The notes below the pieces were generated by a model. That model made no database searches. It was not told the origin of the DNA and was given only the letters and a program-made list of their open reading frames with translations. A program made the translations under genes and the position numbers. Positions 6,775 to 34,024 of a stretch of 64,000 bases of DNA are shown here, in pieces. Source of the stretch: a phage; the sequence record PZ445526.1; one strand, written 5' to 3'. Every line of letters starts with the position of its first letter. Position 1 is the stretch's first letter.

Positions 6775-7412
6775 TGAATGAACCCCAATTACTAATTGAA
6801 ACTTGGGGTCAACCTGGCGAAATTATTGATGGCGTACCAATGCTTGAATCTCATGATGGAAAAGACTTAGGTTTAAAACCGGGTTTATACATCGAAGGAA
6901 TATTCATGCAAGCGGAAGTCGTCAATAGAAATAAACGTCTTTATCCAAAACGTATATTAGAAAAAGCGGTAAAAGACTATATTAATGAGCAAGTTTTAAC
7001 TAAACAAGCTCTCGGAGAATTAAATCATCCTCCACGCGCTAATGTTGACCCGATGCAAGCCGCTATCATTATAGAAGATATGTGGTGGAAAGGAAATGAC
7101 GTATACGGACGAGCTCGTGTTATTGAAGGTGACCATGGTCCTGGAGATAAATTAGCAGCTAATATTCGTGCCGGATGGATTCCAGGAGTTTCTTCTCGTG
7201 GATTAGGTTCATTGACTGACACAAATAAAGGTTATCGTATCGTAAACGAAGGATTCAAATTAACTGTAGGTGTTGATGCAGTATGGGGTCCAAGTGCTCC
7301 AGATGCATGGGTAACTCCTAAGGAAATTACCGAATCACAGACGGCGGAAGCCGATACAAGTGCCGATGACGCCTATATGGCTCTCGCAGAGGCCATGAAA
7401 AAAGCGTTATAA
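6774..7412 (+). CDS. 21: Prohead core protease gp21
   Basis: 212-aa ORF, T4 gp21 size and position. Confidence 0.92.
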   Translation: MNEPQLLIETWGQPGEIIDGVPMLESHDGKDLGLKPGLYIEGIFMQAEVVNRNKRLYPKRILEKAVKDYINEQVLTKQALGELNHPPRANVDPMQAAIIIEDMWWKGNDVYGRARVIEGDHGPGDKLAANIRAGWIPGVSSRGLGSLTDTNKGYRIVNEGFKLTVGVDAVWGPSAPDAWVTPKEITESQTAEADTSADDAYMALAEAMKKAL

Positions 7413-7415
7413 ATA
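7408..7415 (+). promoter_or_regulatory. Late promoter TATAAATA upstream of gene 22
   Basis: Exact motif overlapping the gp21 stop, 28 nt before the gene 22 ATG. Confidence 0.7.
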
Positions 7416-7442
7416 TTATTATCTAAACAACAGGACTACAAA

Positions 7443-8252
7443 ATGCTTAAAGAACAACTGATTGCCGAAGCGCAGAAAATTGATGCTTCCGTTGCTCTTG
7501 ATAGTATTTTCGAATCAGTTAATATTTCTCCGGAAGCAAAAGAAACTTTCGGCACTGTATTCGAAGCTACCGTCAAGCAGCACGCCGTTAAATTAGCTGA
7601 ATCTCATATCGCTAAAATTGCTGAAAAAGCAGAAGAAGAAGTAGAAAAAAATAAAGAAGAAGCCGAAGAAAAAGCTGAGAAGAAAATCGCTGAGCAAGCT
7701 TCTAAATTCATTGACCATCTTGCGAAAGAATGGCTCGCTGAAAATAAATTAGCAGTTGATAAAGGCATCAAAGCCGAACTGTTTGAATCCATGCTTGGTG
7801 GATTAAAAGAGCTCTTTGTTGAACACAACGTTGTTGTTCCAGAAGAATCAGTTGATGTTGTAGCTGAAATGGAAGAAGAGCTGCAAGAACATAAAGAAGA
7901 ATCAGCTCGTCTGTTCGAAGAACTCAATATGCGCGACGCATATATCAATTATGTGCAGCGTGAAGTGGCATTGAGCGAAAGTACTAAAGATCTGACTGAG
8001 TCTCAAAAAGAAAAAGTCTCTGCTCTGGTCGAAGGTATGGATTATTCAGATGCATTCTCAAGTAAATTGAGTGCAATCGTAGAAATGGTGAAGAAATCTA
8101 ATAAAGATGAAAGCACTATTACTGAGGGTATAAATACTCCTGATACTGAAGCAGCCGGACTGAATTTCGTCACTGAAGCTGTAGAAGATAAAGCTGCACA
8201 GGGTGCAGAAGATATTGTAAGTGTATATGCGAAAGTCGCATCTCGTTTCTAA
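7443..8252 (+). CDS. 22: Prohead core scaffold protein gp22
   Basis: 269-aa acidic, coiled-coil-rich ORF; T4 gp22 size and position; late promoter upstream. Confidence 0.92.
   Translation: MLKEQLIAEAQKIDASVALDSIFESVNISPEAKETFGTVFEATVKQHAVKLAESHIAKIAEKAEEEVEKNKEEAEEKAEKKIAEQASKFIDHLAKEWLAENKLAVDKGIKAELFESMLGGLKELFVEHNVVVPEESVDVVAEMEEELQEHKEESARLFEELNMRDAYINYVQREVALSESTKDLTESQKEKVSALVEGMDYSDAFSSKLSAIVEMVKKSNKDESTITEGINTPDTEAAGLNFVTEAVEDKAAQGAEDIVSVYAKVASRF
8129..8136 (+). promoter_or_regulatory. Candidate late promoter for gene 23 inside 3' end of gene 22
   Basis: Exact TATAAATA about 135 nt upstream of the gene 23 ATG; nearest such motif. Confidence 0.45.
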
Positions 8253-25107: not shown

Positions 25108-27165
25108 CTACATTTTGAACTTTTTAGACATTCCATTGATGTTAACCAAAGAAGCCAAGATTTGAGAAACTTCGTTTTCCTCTTCTTTTGATTCTTCTAC
25201 AAGGAATTGATTAAATCCAATCATTGGACGAACTTCACCAGTTTCCATTAGATGGTCGCCATCATATACTGATTCCTCTAATTGTTCAGAAGGAGGAACG
25301 ATTGTACCTTCGATTAGATACTTGTTATAAGCAGTTTCTTTCATAAAGTAAGTACTTACTTTATTAATCTTCAGTAAAATTCCACGCGGTAGAATAACTT
25401 CAGCTTCTGATGGAAATCCTGATAAATGACCCGGAACGATAACTTTAATTCGCTCAGCTCCTTTAATTACCATACCCACGCTAGTTTCAGCATCTTCATT
25501 AGCATATGTAGAATGACTACCCATATGCATCAAATCTTCTGCATCAACAGAACCTTCTCCTTCGCCAGAAAATACTGCACCGGAATCATCTAGAGCCATA
25601 TAGTTTTTACCATGCTCACCGAAGATATTTGGTTTAAGCGATGTGGATACGAAGTTCTTGAAATAGAACATTTTGTTTTCAATGTTATGACGCAAAGTTT
25701 TAAAGGTAACTTCTTGTCCACGGTAAAGTGTAGTTCCTGGAGGAAGAACTGAACCTTTAGCGAATGCAGAATCAAGCGTCTCAATATGTTTAATAGCTCG
25801 TTCCATATATTCTTCACGGGTAGAATCTGGTTTACCCAAAAGGAACGAGTTCATTTCAACATATGAATCTGCACAATAATCTTCAATTACATCAGATTCA
25901 GCTTGAGTTAATCCTTTTGGAGTTACTTCGGTGCTTGCGTATTCATATGCCTGGGCAGCAGATTCATTAATCAATTTATAAATGCCATTCATGACAAATT
26001 GAATAATAGCTGTCTTTTCATCTGGCGTAGCTTTAGAACCTTTAACTAAATCATTAATAATTTTCTTAATAACATCAAAGCTATTAGAAATATTAATGTC
26101 AGCAAGATCGCTTAAAATTTTATCAGTTTTATAATCAAAGAATTCTTTATTCTTTAAATATTCTTGAGAACCTTGATATGTTATATCGCTCTGCAACTTG
26201 ATGGATGGATCACGTAAACGTGCATGGGCTAATGCAATATGATTTCGGAAGTTTTCTAGTTCATAATCGCTAGATTTAAAACGAGAAGCACTCCTCATAC
26301 CACCGATAGCTCCTTTGTTGAAGTTTGAACCAATCTGAATAACGCCAGAGTTCATTGGTCCTTCTGCTTTATATACCGGAACTTTAGATTCAAACTCTTG
26401 ATATTTCTTGGCAGCGAAGCTATCACCCTGAAGTGAAGCATCGACAGTAGAATATTGAGCTTGTGCTGCTAATCGACGACTAATTTTAGTTTTCTGAATA
26501 ACCGCTTGGTCAGTACGTTTATCATTTTCTAAAGCAATAGAAGCAGCAACAGCGACAGCTTTAGGAACAGCATCACCTGTTTTAATGTCTACATAAACAT
26601 CACCAACCTTTGATTCAACTTTTGTGAATAACTCAGTTGAAATAGGAGGTACACCTGGAATGTCTTCTAAATTGGCATTTTTACGGTAAACCATAATATA
26701 TGCATACTTTTTATCATAGTCCCAGATTTCCTTTAAAAGAACATATCGACCTGCTCCTTTAGTACGTACTAAACGGTCAGCAATAACTTGCATTTGACGA
26801 GCAGCGCCATTTGTTTTACTTTTTAGTACGCGGAATAGGCATGCGTCAATTTTATACTGTTTCATTGTTTGAAGAGCAGTATCAAAAACAGCATTAATGA
26901 CGCCAATTGGATTTCCACCCAAGTTTCTAAGCTTAACCAGCGATAATTTCTCGTTGACACCTATCATTACGATATGCATCATTTTATCGCCTGGCTTAAC
27001 GTTTTTATTTGTATCACCACCAGAGGTGTATGTACAAAATCTAAATCCAGGAAGCACGCTTTCTTCGCCGGCTTGGATAGCAAAAATTTGTGGTATTTTA
27101 TGCTTAGGATTTAAGTTAACAACCGGCGCCGAAGCGCCGTCAAATAATTCTGTAATAAGTTCCAT
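25108..27165 (-). CDS. alt: Alt-family NAD-protein ADP-ribosyltransferase (685 aa)
   Basis: N-terminus MELITELFD; R-S-E ART motifs visible (YRGQ, FVSTSL, EAEVILPRG); size close to T4 Alt (682 aa as recalled). Confidence 0.85.
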   Translation of the reverse strand: MELITELFDGASAPVVNLNPKHKIPQIFAIQAGEESVLPGFRFCTYTSGGDTNKNVKPGDKMMHIVMIGVNEKLSLVKLRNLGGNPIGVINAVFDTALQTMKQYKIDACLFRVLKSKTNGAARQMQVIADRLVRTKGAGRYVLLKEIWDYDKKYAYIMVYRKNANLEDIPGVPPISTELFTKVESKVGDVYVDIKTGDAVPKAVAVAASIALENDKRTDQAVIQKTKISRRLAAQAQYSTVDASLQGDSFAAKKYQEFESKVPVYKAEGPMNSGVIQIGSNFNKGAIGGMRSASRFKSSDYELENFRNHIALAHARLRDPSIKLQSDITYQGSQEYLKNKEFFDYKTDKILSDLADINISNSFDVIKKIINDLVKGSKATPDEKTAIIQFVMNGIYKLINESAAQAYEYASTEVTPKGLTQAESDVIEDYCADSYVEMNSFLLGKPDSTREEYMERAIKHIETLDSAFAKGSVLPPGTTLYRGQEVTFKTLRHNIENKMFYFKNFVSTSLKPNIFGEHGKNYMALDDSGAVFSGEGEGSVDAEDLMHMGSHSTYANEDAETSVGMVIKGAERIKVIVPGHLSGFPSEAEVILPRGILLKINKVSTYFMKETAYNKYLIEGTIVPPSEQLEESVYDGDHLMETGEVRPMIGFNQFLVEESKEEENEVSQILASLVNINGMSKKFKM

Positions 27166-27168
27166 GAT

Positions 27169-29265
27169 TTATCCTTGAACGAACTTGTAAGGCATGTTTG
27201 TAATATCTATGCAAGACGCAATAATTCCAATAGATGATTCTACTTTCTGTTTAACATTTGATGAAACAAATGATGCAAAGTCAACTCTGTCTTCTATTTC
27301 AATATCATCTGTCATTGCAACTACTTCACCGGTTTCCATTAAACGGTCTCCGTCATAGATTACCGATTCGGTGAGTTCTTCTGTGGTCATAACTTCAGCT
27401 TGAATGAGTTTTGTATTGTTAGATGTTGTTCCGTCATTATTAGAAGCATCAGTTATTTTATTAACTTTGACCATCAATCCGCGCGGTAGAATAACTTCAG
27501 CTTCTGTTGCTATTCCGAGACTTCCTGGATATACAACATTAACTTTATGTGCGCCGTCAATTGCCCATCCTATTTGAACTTTAACGTATTCAGGATTTTC
27601 TTTATACGCTCTTATTTCGTTTGGATTAATAGTTATTCCTTCTTCATTTTTATCAACTGTTAATTCATTGCGAGCTTCTGGTTCTAAAAGACCAATACCA
27701 GCATGTGTAATTCCAAAACGTCCAAAAATGATAGGAGTTAAAGAAGTAGATACAAAATTTCTGAAATAGAACACTTTATTTTTAACTAGTGCTTCGTATA
27801 TAGGAGCAGTCATACTTTGAGCACGATAAACTGTAATGCCTTCCGGTATGCGGTCACCATTTTCAAAAGCTGAATCTAAATTATTTATAGCAGATTCAAT
27901 TTCTTTTTCACTCATTACATCATATCGTTCTGGATTGTAACGACCTAAAAGAAGATTATTAATGTCTGTATATCCTGAACCACAATACTCTCTAATACCG
28001 CGCTTTTGTGATGGAGTATATTTAGAACCATCACGGGCAATAGTAATATCAATCATTGGACCAGCACCAATTCCAGAAAAACTATAAATCATTCGTTTGA
28101 GGAATTTAGTTTTTGCTGCATTCCAGGCATTTTTAGTTATTTCTCCCCAGACTTCATCTGGTTGCCCTTTACGAGTTTTATTATGTTTATCAAGCCAATT
28201 ATCTTTATATTCTTCAAAGAATTTATTAATAGCTGCTGCGTATTTCTCTAAACATTTTATTGAAGTAGTTGGTTCATTTTTTATCGCGTTAAAAATTACA
28301 TCTTTAATTTTTTCGGAAACTTCATCAACCTCACTTTTTGAAAAGAATTTATAGTCATAGTGAAGTTCATTCGCAGTTCCTTCGGCAATAATTTTTGCTG
28401 CCTTAGTTTTAGAAGCTAATGAATTAATTCCAAGCTTCATTTCTTCTGCTTCGGGAATTAAAGGAGCGGTAGCAGGTTTATTGAAATTAGCTGCGGTAGA
28501 TTCATACTTCTGGAATAATTCACTTTCAAATCTAGAAGATTCCAATGACTGACTTTGTGCAATTGCTCTACGGGAAATTTTAACTTTAACGATTACAGCT
28601 TGATCAGAACGTTTATCATTTTCTTGCGCAATAGATGCTGCAATTGCCTCATTTTTAGTTACTTGAGCTCCAGTATCTTTATTGATATAAACATCACCAA
28701 CCTTTGATTCAACTTTAGTAAAGAGCTCGGTACTAATTTCCGGAACTCCTGGAATGTCTTCTAGTGATACATTTTTGCGATGTATAAGAATATATGCATA
28801 CTTTTTATCATAGTCCCAGATTTCCTTAAGAATGACGTATCTGCCACCTGAACGACTACGGATAAGTCTATCAGCAATAACTTGAATTTGTCGAGCTTGA
28901 CCAGCGGTTTTAGACTTAAGAATACGGAGCATACAAGCATCAATTTTATATTGACGCATTGTTTGCATTGCAACAGTAAAAACTGAATTGATATAATTAA
29001 TTGGGCTTGGACCAAGACCTTTCAATTTAGCAATTGAACCTTTAGCAGTTAATGTAAAAGGAACAATATGCATCATTTTATCGCCCATTTTTAAATCGCG
29101 ATTAGTATCACCTCCAGATGTATAGGTACATAAACGAAAGCCTGGTTGTTCAATTGCATCATCAACGTGAACTGAAAAAATTTGCGGTATTTTCTTCTTT
29201 GGATTTAAGTTTGTAATCGGAAGAGTAGTATCTTCGTCAAATAATTCTGTAATGAGTTCCATCAT
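27169..29265 (-). CDS. Second Alt-family ADP-ribosyltransferase paralog (698 aa)
   Basis: Same N-terminal MELITELFD...NLNPKKKIPQIF...CTYTSGGDTN and the same R / STS / EAEVILPRG motifs as the adjacent alt but diverged centrally; stop lies 3 nt before the alt start. Confidence 0.85.
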   Translation of the reverse strand: MMELITELFDEDTTLPITNLNPKKKIPQIFSVHVDDAIEQPGFRLCTYTSGGDTNRDLKMGDKMMHIVPFTLTAKGSIAKLKGLGPSPINYINSVFTVAMQTMRQYKIDACMLRILKSKTAGQARQIQVIADRLIRSRSGGRYVILKEIWDYDKKYAYILIHRKNVSLEDIPGVPEISTELFTKVESKVGDVYINKDTGAQVTKNEAIAASIAQENDKRSDQAVIVKVKISRRAIAQSQSLESSRFESELFQKYESTAANFNKPATAPLIPEAEEMKLGINSLASKTKAAKIIAEGTANELHYDYKFFSKSEVDEVSEKIKDVIFNAIKNEPTTSIKCLEKYAAAINKFFEEYKDNWLDKHNKTRKGQPDEVWGEITKNAWNAAKTKFLKRMIYSFSGIGAGPMIDITIARDGSKYTPSQKRGIREYCGSGYTDINNLLLGRYNPERYDVMSEKEIESAINNLDSAFENGDRIPEGITVYRAQSMTAPIYEALVKNKVFYFRNFVSTSLTPIIFGRFGITHAGIGLLEPEARNELTVDKNEEGITINPNEIRAYKENPEYVKVQIGWAIDGAHKVNVVYPGSLGIATEAEVILPRGLMVKVNKITDASNNDGTTSNNTKLIQAEVMTTEELTESVIYDGDRLMETGEVVAMTDDIEIEDRVDFASFVSSNVKQKVESSIGIIASCIDITNMPYKFVQG

Positions 29266-29318: not shown

Positions 29319-29503
29319 TAATCTATTGGTAAGAGAGTACGATATATTTCAAACTTTGGACCTTTTTCATAAGCATCAAAAGTTTCTGTGAATTTATTAT
29401 AAGCATATGCATCGATAAATTCAATCATGATTTGTGATACAGAAGTAGAAACATCTCCACCTTCTTTTTGAGCCACGACAATTGTTTCTAAGTAAGCTTT
29501 CAT
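29315..29503 (-). CDS. Hypothetical small protein coupled to ligase
   Basis: 62-aa ORF whose ATG overlaps the gene 30 stop (ATGA); terminator hairpin overlaps its stop. Confidence 0.6.
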   Translation of the reverse strand: MKAYLETIVVAQKEGGDVSTSVSQIMIEFIDAYAYNKFTETFDAYEKGPKFEIYRTLLPIDY

Positions 29504-30963
29504 AAACCAGTTACCTCATGAAAATCACCAAATACATCCTCGAATGTATTAGCTTTAGTTTTATCTTCACGCAAACGAATCGCAATCGGAAGAAATAATT
29601 TAACGTAATCAGTGCGGCCATCAGATTTTAACCAACCGTTGCATTCGCACTCTAGAATTTTTCCAATATAATAATTTTGGTTTTCCATAATGCGAGTACG
29701 GTCAAGTTCATGCGATTTTACACCGGCTTTATCTTTTAAGCCTGAACCAGCATTTACTTTAATTTTTCCACACTCTGACTCAAGAATAAATCCACCTGCT
29801 TTAGTAGGGTCTTTACGGTGAGGATAAATTCCTACAATTTTTAAATCAACATCAATTACTTCTTTAAATTTATAGAGATTTTTTGAACGAGCATTTTCCC
29901 ATAATCCATCGATATTTTTGAGAATAATACCTTCAAGACCTTGGTCAATATACTTTTTATAAATTACCTTAGCTTCATCTAGGTTATTTACTACCTGGTT
30001 TTCAATTAAAATTACTTTATCATATCCCGATGTCATTTGTTCTAGTTTAGAAAAACGTACATCATATTTCAAACGAAATGCTGGAAGACCGTATATTTCT
30101 ACTAATGGAACATAATCCCAGACCTGAAACTTCATGCATTGTGCTTCTTTTTCAGAAATGGTTCCCTTTAAAGATTTATTGGCGATTCCATTAGAAGCAG
30201 TACGTGATTCAGCTACTTCGGCGAATTCTTTAACTTTACTGTTTTCAGGATGAGCATCAAAAAGAAAATCTAGGCCTTCTGGCTCCTTTTTAACTTGCTC
30301 ATGGTATACCAATTCGCCATCAATTAACACACCTTCTGGATGAATCTGGCGGGCTTCAGCGGTCATTTTGATTAACTCTTCCTTAAGAAGATCTAATCCT
30401 AGGTATTCATTACCAGCTCGTGATAAAAGACGAACATCATCTAATTCATCACCTCTGACTTCAGCAAAGCACCGAGCCCCATCAGCTTTTAACTGGGCAA
30501 AGGCTGGAAATTTGATATTCTTATTAATGCCTTTTTCATCATAAGAACTTGCAAGCATTTGAGGTTGTTCAGGAATTAAACCTGGCCAAACTTTGTTTGC
30601 AATAGATACTGAAGCACCGCATTCAAGGTCTCGCATCATCACTCGACGCAAAACTTCAACATCATCTTTTTTACCATCGGTGATATATCCAGTTAATTCC
30701 TCAATTGCCGCATTTCCGGTCAATTTCCGAGTAGCTAACGTGAATTCAATGAAGTCAAGCATATCGGTAAGAGTCAACATTCCAAAACTCTGGGTAGCAA
30801 TACCAGGTTTAGGCCATTTCTTGATATAATACTGTAAGCCACGAGAATAAGTCAGACGATATACTCGTTTAAGCAATTCATTATCTTTATTCTTTTCAAG
30901 AATTGCTTGCTTCTGCTTAGTTGAACCAATAGATGCTATTTCGTTCAGAATTTTAAGAATCAT
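29500..30963 (-). CDS. 30: ATP-dependent DNA ligase gp30
   Basis: 487-aa ORF MILKILNEIASIGSTKQKQAILEKNKDNELL...; adenylation motif KADGARC; T4 ligase size. Confidence 0.95.
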   Translation of the reverse strand: MILKILNEIASIGSTKQKQAILEKNKDNELLKRVYRLTYSRGLQYYIKKWPKPGIATQSFGMLTLTDMLDFIEFTLATRKLTGNAAIEELTGYITDGKKDDVEVLRRVMMRDLECGASVSIANKVWPGLIPEQPQMLASSYDEKGINKNIKFPAFAQLKADGARCFAEVRGDELDDVRLLSRAGNEYLGLDLLKEELIKMTAEARQIHPEGVLIDGELVYHEQVKKEPEGLDFLFDAHPENSKVKEFAEVAESRTASNGIANKSLKGTISEKEAQCMKFQVWDYVPLVEIYGLPAFRLKYDVRFSKLEQMTSGYDKVILIENQVVNNLDEAKVIYKKYIDQGLEGIILKNIDGLWENARSKNLYKFKEVIDVDLKIVGIYPHRKDPTKAGGFILESECGKIKVNAGSGLKDKAGVKSHELDRTRIMENQNYYIGKILECECNGWLKSDGRTDYVKLFLPIAIRLREDKTKANTFEDVFGDFHEVTGL

Positions 30964-31229
30964 TGTTCATCCTTTAGAGTTTGGTTTACAGCTCTATTAT
31001 AAATCAATTCATCATTAAGCTCAGTCAAAGACCTATGATATGTAGTTCTAACTTTATTTCCTTGCATCCAATGCTTGACGTAAATGAAACCTTGCTCTAC
31101 ACATTTTTTAAAAATTCGTTCGTCTTTTTGAGCTCGGAATTCTGGATTGCATCTAAAAAATTGATTTACGTGACCGTAATCACGTGTAGTATTACCTTCA
31201 TTTTCATAAATAGTGTGAACAACAAACAT
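30960..31229 (-). CDS. 30.1: Hypothetical protein (30.1 by position)
   Basis: 89-aa ORF; stop overlaps ligase start (ATGA). Confidence 0.65.
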   Translation of the reverse strand: MFVVHTIYENEGNTTRDYGHVNQFFRCNPEFRAQKDERIFKKCVEQGFIYVKHWMQGNKVRTTYHRSLTELNDELIYNRAVNQTLKDEQ

Positions 31230-32083
31230 TAGAATGCTCCTTGGAAAATATTATCACCACTACCACTAGTAAGTCTATTAAAATACCCTGCATCGCCAGG
31301 CTTAATATAACTCCACGTATGGAATGGATGCATCTGGTGTGAGTGCGTATAATATGGATGATATGGATTATAAGGATTAAATCCAGGAGTTCTCCAGGTA
31401 GTGTTCCAGCGAAAAGAATCGTTTTTAATCATCTTCTCAATTACATCTTTTATAGCTTTTTCACTATCAAAACTTTCTTTATTTTCCTTCAATGGAAAAA
31501 GCTTATTCTCTACATCATTCCATGTATAAACTCGCTGTGCAGTTTTTGGAATATTGTCACGCTCTCCTCGAGCCATCCAATACACAGGAACACTTAATAT
31601 TTCACTCGCATGATCGCAGTGGTGAGCAAGATCGTCAATATAACAAATTACGTTATATTTCTCTTTTGCCTTTTTGAACAACTCTTCTTTTGAAGAATCA
31701 TGACCACACATCAGTACTTCTGAGAAGGCACCAGGAAAAAGAGCATTCAAATTAAATTGACGATTTAATAGAGCGTCAATAGAATCACCCAATGCTGTAA
31801 CAGCAACAAAATTATAATCTTCTTTTAATTTGTTAATTACACACAGAGCATCTTTATATGGAGACAAGTAACGAATAAAATCTGATCGATTGTATTTTTC
31901 AATTAACTTGACACCAAGTTCTTCATCACAATTAAAGAGTTTACCTGGAGAAATAAATTTCTCATCTTGAATCATTTTTAAAATATGTTCCAACGGAAGA
32001 TTATATTTCTGGGCAAAATAAGGAAGGCCTGATTGCCAGCTTAAACATACTCCATCAATATCAGTCAAAATAGTAGGCTTCAT
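31229..32083 (-). CDS. 30.2: HAD-superfamily phosphatase-like protein (30.2 by position)
   Basis: 284-aa ORF with HAD motif I ILTDIDGV, motif II VAVTALG and Asp-rich motif YIDDLAHH; unusual aromatic/His/Pro-rich C-terminal tail. Confidence 0.75.
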   Translation of the reverse strand: MKPTILTDIDGVCLSWQSGLPYFAQKYNLPLEHILKMIQDEKFISPGKLFNCDEELGVKLIEKYNRSDFIRYLSPYKDALCVINKLKEDYNFVAVTALGDSIDALLNRQFNLNALFPGAFSEVLMCGHDSSKEELFKKAKEKYNVICYIDDLAHHCDHASEILSVPVYWMARGERDNIPKTAQRVYTWNDVENKLFPLKENKESFDSEKAIKDVIEKMIKNDSFRWNTTWRTPGFNPYNPYHPYYTHSHQMHPFHTWSYIKPGDAGYFNRLTSGSGDNIFQGAF

Positions 32084-32538
32084 AGAGAGTCTCTTAATAG
32101 GTTTAACACATCAATAAATTCAGCTTCGGTTAGTATTGTATCATCTTTTGTTAGACCACTAGCCATGCTGTGCTTCAAAACTTTTCCTTTCGAGGCTTGT
32201 AATGCATCACGAAAGCCCTTGTTTTGGATCGCTGCTTCAAAATATGCATTTGTGTATAATTCTTTCCACGCTGGGGAGTATCTTGAAAACGGAACTCCAA
32301 GCCAGAAGAGGGTCCCACGGTCCTGAGCTCTAGCATAAGACCTTCCAGCTTGTTGGGCGGCAAGCCCTGATAACCCAAATATACGACGTTGTTGTTCAAC
32401 ATTTTTCACCTTACACCCTTGGAGGAATCCTTCGAGACCTCCAAATTGAATACCATCCATAACGAAAGGCCAATGGGCGAAATTACTTAATGCACATGAT
32501 GGCCATCTAAAATTGCTTCTAATCTCTAACTCAGACAT
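32080..32538 (-). CDS. 30.3: NADAR/YbiA-family (DUF1768-like) protein (30.3 by position)
   Basis: Track ORF starts at TTG; ATG at 32538 gives 152 aa; SNFAHWPFVMDGIQF...EGFLQGCK resembles the YbiA/NADAR signature SNFA.WP..DG...E.YFQA.K; ATGA overlap with HAD gene. Confidence 0.7.
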   Translation of the reverse strand: MSELEIRSNFRWPSCALSNFAHWPFVMDGIQFGGLEGFLQGCKVKNVEQQRRIFGLSGLAAQQAGRSYARAQDRGTLFWLGVPFSRYSPAWKELYTNAYFEAAIQNKGFRDALQASKGKVLKHSMASGLTKDDTILTEAEFIDVLNLLRDSL

Positions 32539-32737
32539 TTTCAATGCTTATAATTTCAACATCAGCCCAATGACCATAGCAAGGAAGACGAAATTCAACT
32601 GGCCAGTTAGGGTCCTTTTCTAATATAATAGACTCAACTTGTGGTTCTTCATGTTCATCAGTATATGGATTTTTATCTGTTACTTTATATGTGACCTTAA
32701 TGTACTGAATTCCAAAAATCTTATTAATTATATTCAT
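32531..32737 (-). CDS. Hypothetical protein
   Basis: 68-aa ORF with ATG start, in the 30.x small-gene array. Confidence 0.55.
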   Translation of the reverse strand: MNIINKIFGIQYIKVTYKVTDKNPYTDEHEEPQVESIILEKDPNWPVEFRLPCYGHWADVEIISIENV

Positions 32738-32931
32738 ACTAATTCCTTTAATCCGTAAATAGGAGATAATTCATCACCCATACGAAGGTCTTCATTTCCA
32801 TCTACCCAGGAAACAATATAAGCCTCTTTTATTTGAATACCACTCCATTTAAATGGAGGTAGAACCTTAGAAATTAATCCAGGTATACCAACTCCCTTTA
32901 ATTCAACGGTTTGACCTAAAAAGAATTTCAT
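32734..32931 (-). CDS. Hypothetical protein
   Basis: 65-aa ORF, ATGA-type coupling to neighbours. Confidence 0.55.
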   Translation of the reverse strand: MKFFLGQTVELKGVGIPGLISKVLPPFKWSGIQIKEAYIVSWVDGNEDLRMGDELSPIYGLKELV

Positions 32932-33218
32932 TAAAACCTCATCTGAAAACCGTGCGATTTAACGTTACCGCCGCCAATATCAGAAATGTTAATTTCGCGC
33001 GCAATTGAAGGGTCAATGTCAATTTCACGATTGAGTTTAGTGATAGCTAAAGTATCGCGCCCATTTACAGTACGGAACTCTAAAGGACAAACCACATCAA
33101 CGTAGTTTTTAATCGATTCACTGGTAGGCTGCAAATGAGCAGGAAGGTCTTTAGGCGCCTTTGAGAAAACCACTTCACAGAAATTTTTGCGGGTATCAAA
33201 ATAAGTAGTCATAAACAT
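32931..33218 (-). CDS. Hypothetical protein
   Basis: Track N-terminus (MGLRP) is encoded by a GC hairpin; internal ATG with GAGGA SD gives about 95 aa. Confidence 0.55.
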   Translation of the reverse strand: MFMTTYFDTRKNFCEVVFSKAPKDLPAHLQPTSESIKNYVDVVCPLEFRTVNGRDTLAITKLNREIDIDPSIAREINISDIGGGNVKSHGFQMRF

Positions 33219-33235
33219 AATATTTTCCTCAGTAA

Positions 33236-33249
33236 GGGGCCGAAGCCCC
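33236..33249 (-). terminator. GC hairpin in the 30.x array
   Basis: GGGGC-CGAA-GCCCC. Confidence 0.45.
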
Positions 33250-33257
33250 ATTTTATT

Positions 33258-33691: not shown

Positions 33692-34024
33692 TTATTTTAC
33701 TACTTTCCAATGCTGCATGTCAAGTTTACCAACTTTTTTCATCTTCTCAATTAAGCGTTCTGCACGTTGGCGAGCTGTAACATAATGCCATTCGCCTAAT
33801 TCATTTTGTTCAATTTTTCCAACGATTACTGTATTCAATTCATAAATCCAACCAGTAAAGAAATTATGAACTTGAATTGTAAAGGTGAAATCTGTTCCCA
33901 TACCTTCTGTTGTTTCTACTTCAATAATATCACCTTCAACTGCCATTAAGAACCACATAGTTTCATTATATTTACCATTGAAGCATTTAGTTTTAACTGC
34001 AGCGTTCAGATTAATCGTTTTCAT
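33692..34024 (-). CDS. Hypothetical protein
   Basis: 110-aa ORF; AAGGAG SD; sigma70-like early promoter upstream at about 34052-34080. Confidence 0.6.
   Translation of the reverse strand: MKTINLNAAVKTKCFNGKYNETMWFLMAVEGDIIEVETTEGMGTDFTFTIQVHNFFTGWIYELNTVIVGKIEQNELGEWHYVTARQRAERLIEKMKKVGKLDMQHWKVVK

Follow-up and report, generated by a model that had tools for sequence, protein, structure and literature searches.

Gene layout between alt and 30.7

The window, which is the whole 64,000-nt stretch of DNA analysed here, derives from a T4-like phage (Tequatrovirus) and matches Tequatrovirus genomes at 97-98%. It shares with the T4 record the gene map alt, alt.1, 30, 30.1, 30.2, 30.3, 30.4, and all of the features described below lie on the minus strand. 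Gene 30.3 (32080..32538) encodes a 152-aa protein that is assigned as AdfN (anti-DarT factor NADAR) on the basis of its PF08010 match, identity to T4, and fold. Its reading frame starts at the ATG at 32538; an alternative TTG start would extend it to 32080-32544 and 154 aa. Gene 30.2 (31229..32083) encodes a 284-aa protein assigned as an NT5C-like HAD-superfamily phosphatase from its motifs, fold, and relatives. The stop of 30.3 and the start of 30.2 overlap as ATGA, as originally noted (32080..32083, read as TCAT on the plus strand). Further along, gene 30.1 (30960..31229; DUF3045, Pfam PF11243 E=3e-64; 88/89 residues identical to T4) overlaps the 30.2 stop by 1 nt, and gene 30 (29500..30963) encodes an ATP-dependent DNA ligase with 484/487 residues identical to the T4 ligase. 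Two Alt-like ORFs (27169-29265 and 25108-27165) follow about 2 and 4 kb from the pair on the same strand, in line with the nearby Alt transferases noted at the outset. Both members of the pair are real genes rather than chance ORFs: tblastn matches number 1511 phage records for the 152-aa protein and 1453 for the 284-aa protein, with genus counts that run parallel.

The best sigma-70-like promoter match in this region lies upstream of 30.7 (33694..33723; TTGACA-18-TAAAAT, 11/12) and is a candidate start for a polycistronic unit running from 30.7 to 30, a call that is a consensus match only, from a class of sites whose total does not exceed the shuffled expectation. Overlapping genes are the rule here: between 25.1 and 37.9 kb, 11 of the 21 same-strand junctions overlap, including all seven consecutive junctions from 30.6 to alt.1. 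The ATGA overlap of 30.3 and 30.2 is not distinctive in this setting, and translational coupling is therefore rejected as evidence of a shared function.

gp30.3 and the NADAR fold

The product of gene 30.3 is identical to T4 gp30.3 (AdfN) at 150/152 residues (98.7%), differing by Q22H and I125M only, and occupies the same place between 30.4 and 30.2. It matches the Pfam family Phage_30_3 (PF08010) over profile positions 1-138 of 138 (E=7e-70; 233.6 bits, cut-off 36). The original prediction called this protein NADAR-like from a signature, SNFAHWPFVMDGIQF...EGFLQGCK, which is indeed present at residues 18-43. The HMM route to that assignment did not bear it out directly, as the Pfam search of gp30.3 matched only PF08010, with no NADAR (PF08719) match at E<=0.1. 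The link to NADAR is instead made through family members and the fold. PF08719 is matched by 20 of the 45 gp30.3 family members, with a best E of 1.5e-7, and the gp30.3 family profile matches E. coli YbiA (2b3w) at E=0.006 in an alignment that pairs the catalytic Glu and Lys of the two. Among the 45 aligned homologues, E36 and H123 never vary and K43 is conserved in >=90%, so the expected catalytic residues are conserved.

Structure prediction agrees with this assignment. The AF2 model of gp30.3 has a pLDDT of 94, and its top three Foldseek matches are all solved NADAR structures: YbiA 2b3w (E 5.6e-5, TM 0.68), PnNADAR 8bau, and the Geobacter lovleyi NADAR 8bat. These three were returned at probability >=0.99, and every other match at <=0.04. 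We place the 152-aa protein among the NADAR-fold enzymes, in the gp30.3/AdfN family. Its third catalytic-site position, H123, sits in the last strand, where DarG1 has Asp and YbiA has Glu; a His at this position marks the phage branch of the NADAR superfamily (PMC11543638, PMC11125620). The YbiA structure and the DarT1-associated (DarG1) antitoxin represented by 8bat share the fold (Foldseek 0.99-1.00) and the Glu/Lys catalytic pair with gp30.3, and DarG1-type NADARs, YbiA, and phage AdfN all hydrolyse guanine-ADPr (PMC11543638, PMC11125620). In contrast to DarG1/YbiA-type NADARs, gp30.3 lacks an N-terminal extension and has diverged in sequence beyond a direct Pfam NADAR match, and unlike the DarT1-associated antitoxins it counts as an orphan, having no toxin next to it. 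T4 AdfN has the same E36, K43, and phage-specific H123 and the same minimal NADAR core without extensions.

The function of T4 AdfN was worked out in experiments of 2024-2025, which identified a NADAR-fold DNA ADP-ribosylglycohydrolase that removes guanine-linked ADP-ribose (PMC11825919, PMC11125620). AdfN is necessary and sufficient against DarTG1: T4 and T2 phages deleted for adfN no longer plaque on DarTG1, the effect of the deletion is specific to DarTG1, and E36 and K43 variants were built to ask whether catalysis is required (PMC11825919). Purified AdfN takes ADPr off DNA alone in vitro (PMC11825919, PMC11125620). The T4 NADAR removes G-ADPr and leaves T-ADPr and C-ADPr, its reported substrates being guanine-ADPr in DNA and RNA (PMC11125620, PMC12945103). 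The RB69 protein is inactive through loss of the C-terminal helix, and RB69 is rescued by ectopic adfN (PMC11825919). The window protein retains this helix intact, with the full 152 aa, residues 138-151 modelled as a helix, and no frameshift. Nothing suggests a functional difference between the window protein and T4 AdfN, and we infer that guanine-ADPr glycohydrolase activity carries over from its 98.7%-identical counterpart. As a minimal NADAR-fold glycohydrolase, gp30.3 would use E36, K43, and H123 to cut the guanine N2-ADP-ribose bond in phage DNA, undoing the modification made by the host DarT1 toxin so that replication could proceed in DarTG1-carrying hosts. The counter-defence against DarT-type systems suggested at first sight has thus already been shown in published work on the T4 orthologue (PMC11825919; in vitro, PMC11125620), and for this reason the adfN finding adds no new biology.

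gp30.2, a predicted capped phosphatase

The HAD assignment of the 284-aa protein, also proposed originally, holds on motifs and fold. The segments ILTDIDGV (residues 5-12), VAVTALG (92-98), and YIDDLAHH (148-155) are present and the four HAD motifs are conserved: D8, D10, and K132 are invariant among 38 homologues, with T96 and D150-D151 in >=90%, and the same three residues are still invariant in 32 remote family members. The model has a confident core with a Rossmannoid HAD fold. This HAD core takes up residues 1 to about 195, a C1 helical cap is inserted into it at about 14-88 (cap helices 16-86, roughly 70 residues), and a helix follows the core. By fold and motifs, gp30.2 is a predicted HAD-superfamily phosphatase. 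Profile searches of the protein itself did not yield the same answer, as gp30.2 falls below every Pfam and NCBIfam HAD or NT5C threshold. Across Pfam, NCBIfam, PADLOC, and single-sequence PDB searches, the two proteins returned only PF08010, DUF3045, and unnamed PHROGs. A weak PHROG match of gp30.2 to polynucleotide kinase (E=0.003) was also seen.

Since the window protein passes no HAD or NT5C threshold, its nucleotidase assignment is drawn from relatives and fold. NT5C (PF06941) is matched at E<=0.01 by 7/38 near and 13/31 remote relatives, with a best E of 4e-10, and one relative (P0346) scores above the NT5C cut-off (29.0 vs 24.8 bits). The best PDB match of the family profile is mouse cdN (2jao, E=0.049). 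The closest structural neighbour, cap included, is a deoxyribonucleotidase-like NT5C family member, and 163 of 168 core residues align to the deoxyribonucleotidase-like S. epidermidis 3bwv. With the NT5C enzymes (human and mouse cdN and mdN, 3bwv), gp30.2 shares the HAD core, a motif I of the form DxDGV with an aromatic residue after it, motifs II-IV, and the C1 helical cap. It differs from them in its low identity (about 15-20%), in a conserved signature of its own family after motif II (NRxFNLNALFPGAF), and in a C-terminal extension of roughly 90 residues, including a disordered repeat-rich tail, that has no counterpart in canonical NT5C enzymes. These comparisons suggest a sister or divergent branch of NT5C rather than a demonstrated member.

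A C1 cap over a HAD active site is typical of small-molecule phosphatases, and Pnkp-type polynucleotide phosphatases have no such cap. Because the active site appears to be capped, a small phosphomonoester is the expected kind of substrate for gp30.2, most probably a (deoxy)nucleoside monophosphate. As a C1-capped phosphatase of the 5'(3')-deoxyribonucleotidase-like branch, gp30.2 would use D8 as the phosphoryl-accepting nucleophile, D10 as the acid/base, T96 and K132 to bind phosphate, and D150/D151 as Mg2+ ligands. Literature searches on gp30.2, also under NP_049815 and gene 30.2, turned up nothing relevant and no biochemical data; the NARP3 paper, considered as gp30.2 literature, turned out to be unrelated. 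The gp30.2 family comprises >1400 cluster representatives. None of its long members P0255, P0319, P0206, P0244, and P0083 has a recognisable extra domain, nor did the gene neighbourhood of P0255 offer a functional clue.

The odd Pro/Tyr/His-rich tail that caught the eye originally (NPYNPYHPYYTHSHQMHPFHTWSY) is there at residues 236-259, within a disordered region of the same composition spanning about 229-284. A 9-bp tandem repeat of 3.1 copies (31352..31379, minus strand) encodes NPY/NPY/HPY in this tail, and the segment is indel-prone: relative to T4 gp30.2 the tail carries a 5-aa insertion and other indels, whereas the core is nearly identical. The tail is probably a disordered, repeat-driven, dispensable appendage.

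Gene neighbourhoods and the case for separate jobs

If 30.3 and 30.2 formed a conserved two-gene operon, they would be expected to travel together, and across divergent relatives their adjacency is not kept. In 22 of 80 gp30.3 loci gene 30.2 is no more than 6 kb away, and the other 58 have no 30.2 nearby; viewed from the other side, 30.3 is within 6 kb in 37/78 gp30.2 loci. In at least eight complete genomes the two genes are 54-69 kb apart. By comparison, DNA ligase adjoins 30.2 in 72/78 loci and is still no more than three genes away in a relative of 39% identity. Ligase is a far more consistent companion of 30.2 than 30.3 is, which, together with the generic overlap, leaves the functional pair that had been proposed from translational coupling without support. 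An Alt gene lies near ligase and 30.2 in 56/78 loci; this proximity is ordinary T4-type synteny and is rejected as module evidence on that account.

The two genes might nevertheless form a two-enzyme anti-ADP-ribosylation module in which gp30.2 either serves AdfN as its T-even factor or disposes of released ADP-ribose or its breakdown products, a reading that we consider unlikely. ATGA coupling would give co-expression in Tequatrovirus and relatives and the phyletic spread is nearly parallel, although this co-occurrence may merely mirror the wide distribution of both genes in T4-like phages. RB69-type contigs (L086-L088) have 30.2 beside 30.3, and phage UGJNEcP4 speaks the other way by keeping a gp30.2 of 212 aa, spanning the HAD core, beside only a 91-aa gp30.3 fragment. 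The ability of purified AdfN to work alone in vitro, the 58 loci without adjacency, the genomes with distant copies, and the ligase linkage all count against a module. What lends the idea some substance is that AdfN-T4 requires a further T-even factor for full in vivo activity: RB69 is rescued, whereas uninfected cells and T5/Bas25 are not (PMC11825919), and AdfN-T4 is unable to neutralise DarT1 in uninfected cells (PMC11825919, PMC11125620). Given this requirement, a functional link between 30.2 and AdfN may exist. The specific proposal that gp30.2 is that factor, either as a physical partner or as a processor of a phosphorylated intermediate or product of de-ADP-ribosylation, strikes us as quite doubtful, and the synteny data argue against it. 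It would fit that RB69-type infections supply gp30.2 whereas uninfected cells and T5/Bas25 are not rescued, and it would also fit the translational chaining in T-even phages and the near-identical phyletic spread.

The ligase linkage raises another alternative, that gp30.2 is an end-healing 3'-phosphatase, a second Pnkp-like activity preparing nicks for the adjacent DNA ligase. The strength of that linkage, its persistence at 39% identity, and the weak polynucleotide-kinase match all favour this assignment, and the structure makes it improbable: the helical cap covers the active site in the gp30.2 model, only 126-131 core residues align to Pnkp as against the 163/168 for 3bwv, and the sequence-profile matches are to NT5C, not to Pnkp families. 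T4-type phages moreover already encode PseT, whose 3'-phosphatase is uncapped, kinase-fused, and acts on polynucleotide ends, whereas gp30.2 is capped and stands alone. The nearby Alt genes had further been read as the writers of a writer-plus-eraser module in which gp30.3 reverses their ADP-ribosylation. Both enzyme types handle ADP-ribose and the genes are 2-4 kb apart on one strand, but 30.3 is far from alt in half of the lineages and alt is on the opposite strand in several loci. Alt targets protein arginines, and the T4 record annotates it as a capsid-borne mono-ADP-ribosyltransferase directed at host RNA polymerase. The guanine-ADPr substrates reported for the T4 NADAR (PMC11125620, PMC12945103) and the DarTG1-specific deletion phenotype (PMC11825919) add to the mismatch, and we find the Alt module highly improbable. 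Among the papers cited here, PMC11543638 included, none reports a test on protein Arg-ADPr, and the Alt-eraser idea is therefore better described as unsupported than as formally disproved.

We therefore judge it quite likely that 30.3 is adfN, that 30.2 encodes an NT5C-like HAD phosphatase linked to ligase, and that the two have separate jobs. They would be neighbouring early genes, co-transcribed and translationally chained with their neighbours, and the conserved chromosomal partner of gp30.2 would be DNA ligase, not adfN. Should gp30.2 prove to be the AdfN factor after all, 30.3-30.2 would be an anti-DarT1 system of two components, the second of which has so far escaped notice. About 1450 sequenced phage genomes carry the gp30.2 gene, nearly always beside DNA ligase, and identifying the substrate of gp30.2 would close a gap in the otherwise well-charted nucleotide and DNA metabolism of T4.

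Position and conservation of the 30.3-30.2 pair

The ORF listing of the window shows a series of minus-strand genes between 25 and 38 kb, and the pair lies among them. Gene 30.3 (adfN) occupies 32080-32538 on the minus strand and encodes 152 aa when counted from its ATG, or 154 aa from an alternative TTG start two codons 5′. Gene 30.2 (284 aa) follows on the same strand at 31229-32083, with the 30.3 stop falling within its start codon (ATGA on the coding strand; TCAT at plus-strand positions 32080-32083). Both ORFs, their overlap, and all of the protein sequence motifs cited in the original prediction are present in the window, as are the two same-strand Alt-like ORFs that it placed nearby (27169-29265 and 25108-27165, downstream of the pair). 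A 1.9-kb segment around the pair matched 686 phage records, the top ones being Tequatrovirus genomes at 97-98% identity. The T4 record is annotated in the identical order: alt, alt.1, 30 (DNA ligase), 30.1, 30.2, 30.3 (with 30.3′ embedded), and 30.4. Protein identity to T4 is 150/152 for gp30.3, 263/285 aligned positions for gp30.2, 88/89 for gp30.1, and 484/487 for ligase. The locus is already known, and the original prediction read it correctly. The embedded 30.3′ candidate that is annotated in T4 (32175-32402, minus strand, +1 frame within 30.3) would encode 75 aa, 71 of them identical to T4. Among 13 relatives, 12 have this frame open over 76 codons, even where gp30.3 identity is as low as 84-86%; the ATG is missing from some relatives, and one has an internal stop.

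gp30.3 as the anti-DarTG1 enzyme AdfN

The gp30.3 protein belongs to Pfam PF08010 (Phage_30_3, E=7e-70) and has no direct Pfam NADAR match even at E<=0.1, so the HMM test proposed with the original prediction would have failed. Despite the missing match, the kinship with NADAR is solid. All 45 aligned homologues have E36 and H123, and K43 is nearly invariant; the family profile matches Escherichia coli YbiA (2b3w) over the SNFA...E...K segment (E=0.006); and 20 of the 45 members match Pfam NADAR PF08719, the best at E=1.5e-7. The AlphaFold model (pLDDT 94) finds credible Foldseek matches only in three solved NADAR structures, namely YbiA, the Phytophthora enzyme (8bau), and the Geobacter lovleyi enzyme (8bat), all with a probability of at least 0.99 and the remainder at 0.04 or below. 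Schuller et al. 2023 (PMC11543638) describe a group of phage NADARs in which the Glu or Asp of the last strand is replaced by His.

The function of this protein has been published. Purified T4 gp30.3 removes ADP-ribose from guanine and not from thymidine, and it gives uninfected cells no protection from DarT1 (Toxins 2024, PMC11125620); in its methods, that study describes the T4 NADAR construct as "gp30.3; residues 1-208", which is longer than the 152 aa encoded by the ORF in T4 and in the window. Cytidine-ADPr is likewise left in place by the T4 NADAR (Toxins 2026, PMC12945103). Johannesman et al. renamed the gene adfN (Nat Commun 2025, PMC11825919) and reported that adfN deletions of T4 and T2 form no plaques on DarTG1, that RB69, whose own adfN is frameshifted, is restored by ectopic adfN, and that ADP-ribose is taken off DNA by purified AdfN but not by a catalytically inactive variant. 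E36 and K43 variants were built in the same work to test the need for catalysis. The window gp30.3 is this anti-DarTG1 enzyme, and the proposed counter-defence against DarT-type toxins is therefore correct and had already been demonstrated. In many T4-like phages, gp30.3 is reduced to a fragment of 86-126 aa that is truncated or fused (P0107, P0113, P0116, P0117, P0114, and P0115), in some cases to domains of neighbouring genes; these fragments suggest repeated natural inactivation of adfN beyond the published RB69 frameshift.

gp30.2, a HAD protein near NT5C

Pfam and NCBIfam returned no match for gp30.2; PHROG 420 is labelled "unknown function", and no mention of the protein was found in the literature. 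Its assignment to the HAD superfamily was borne out by motifs and fold. An alignment of 38 homologues shows all four HAD motifs, D8-x-D10-G11 (I), T96 (II), K132 (III), and D150-D151 (IV), with D8, D10, G11, and K132 invariant and T96, D150, and D151 nearly so, together with a family-specific block, NRxFNLNALFPGAF. AlphaFold models residues 1-195 with confidence (pLDDT >90), and this model gave 107 Foldseek matches at E<=1e-3; among the matches listed, all have the HAD fold. The top PDB match of the family profile, mouse cytosolic deoxyribonucleotidase 2jao, covers the cap as well as motif I, at an E value (0.049) that would not be significant by itself. Pfam NT5C is matched by seven of the 38 close homologues. 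An exhaustive profile search yielded 1421 cluster representatives, and 13 of 31 sampled remote relatives match NT5C (best 4e-10), one clearing the curated cut-off. Because of these motifs, the fold, and the NT5C matches of relatives, we read gp30.2 as a predicted HAD phosphatase with a cap and a small substrate, placed on the NT5C branch or next to it. As the protein encoded in the window falls below the NT5C HMM threshold, it is not filed as a proven member; it is an uncharacterised NT5C-like HAD phosphatase. One distant T4-like contig with a gp30.2 relative (L161) also encodes a Tad2-like protein (PF11195, anti-Thoeris family; 7258-7524) near uvsW.

The Pro/Tyr/His tail is disordered in the model (229-282 unstructured) and is absent from about half of the homologues, those of ~200 aa. 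Relative to T4, the core is almost identical and the tail carries indels, including a 5-aa insertion (YTHSH). A 9-bp tandem repeat, ATATGGATT (3.1 copies, 31352-31379), specifies the NPY-type repeats that make up part of the tail. The tail looks like an evolutionarily labile appendage, and the insertion is consistent with repeat slippage.

Neighbourhood, Alt genes, and a possible role for gp30.2

The pair had been proposed to act together, possibly with Alt as writer and NADAR as eraser. The ATGA overlap is uninformative on pairing because 11 of the 21 same-strand junctions in the region overlap, seven of them (by 1, 4, or 8 nt) in an unbroken chain from 30.6 through 30.5, 30.4, 30.3, 30.2, 30.1, and 30 to alt.1 (29500-33251, minus strand), which suggests one long translationally coupled block. 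The best sigma-70-like site (11/12 consensus; 33723-33694, minus strand) lies within the 3′ end of 30.8, upstream of 30.7, a strong hairpin and T-run resembling a terminator follows 30.9 directly (34131-34110, minus strand), and no terminator-like site was found on the coding strand from 33.7 to 29 kb. This arrangement is consistent with 30.7 to 30 forming one putative polycistronic unit; the count of promoter-like sites is not above shuffled expectation. Functional coupling of the two genes is not supported by synteny. A gp30.2 relative lies within 6 kb in only 22 of 80 gp30.3-relative loci from IMG/VR, and eight complete genomes present in both scans carry the genes 54-69 kb apart. In 72 of 78 gp30.2-relative loci, DNA ligase is directly downstream or separated only by 30.1, with an Alt gene in 56 and gp30.3 in 37; at 39% identity, a gp30.2 relative still has ligase three genes away. 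In phage UGJNEcP4, a 212-aa gp30.2 spanning the HAD core adjoins a 91-aa gp30.3 fragment. Thus, 30.2 and ligase stay together, and 30.3 is the neighbour that shifts position.

The Alt-ligase-30.2 order is ordinary T4-type synteny. The writer-plus-eraser reading is unsupported because Alt is annotated in T4 as a capsid-borne mono-ADP-ribosyltransferase acting on host RNA polymerase, whereas the reported T4 NADAR substrates are guanine-ADPr in DNA and RNA (PMC11125620, PMC12945103); no published test of Arg-ADPr proteins as AdfN substrates was found (PMC11543638 searched). The second Alt paralogue (25108-27165, minus strand) is full-length at 685 aa and shares 40% identity with the Alt-like gene upstream of it and 42% with T4 Alt. 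The short T4 ORFs alt.-1 and alt.-2, described in the T4 record as relics of an old alt duplication, match its N-terminus; the duplicate is kept intact in this phage. The other copy, upstream (27169-29265), matches T4 Alt at just 69% identity, although ligase, which flanks it, matches its T4 counterpart at 99%.

AdfN is fully active only in T-even infections (PMC11825919), which implies a further T-even factor. Co-expression with AdfN in T-even phages and an almost identical phyletic spread (1511 records for gp30.3 and 1453 for gp30.2) make gp30.2 a candidate for this factor. Given the synteny data, the candidate is weak, and we consider it very improbable that T4 AdfN needs gp30.2 in vivo.
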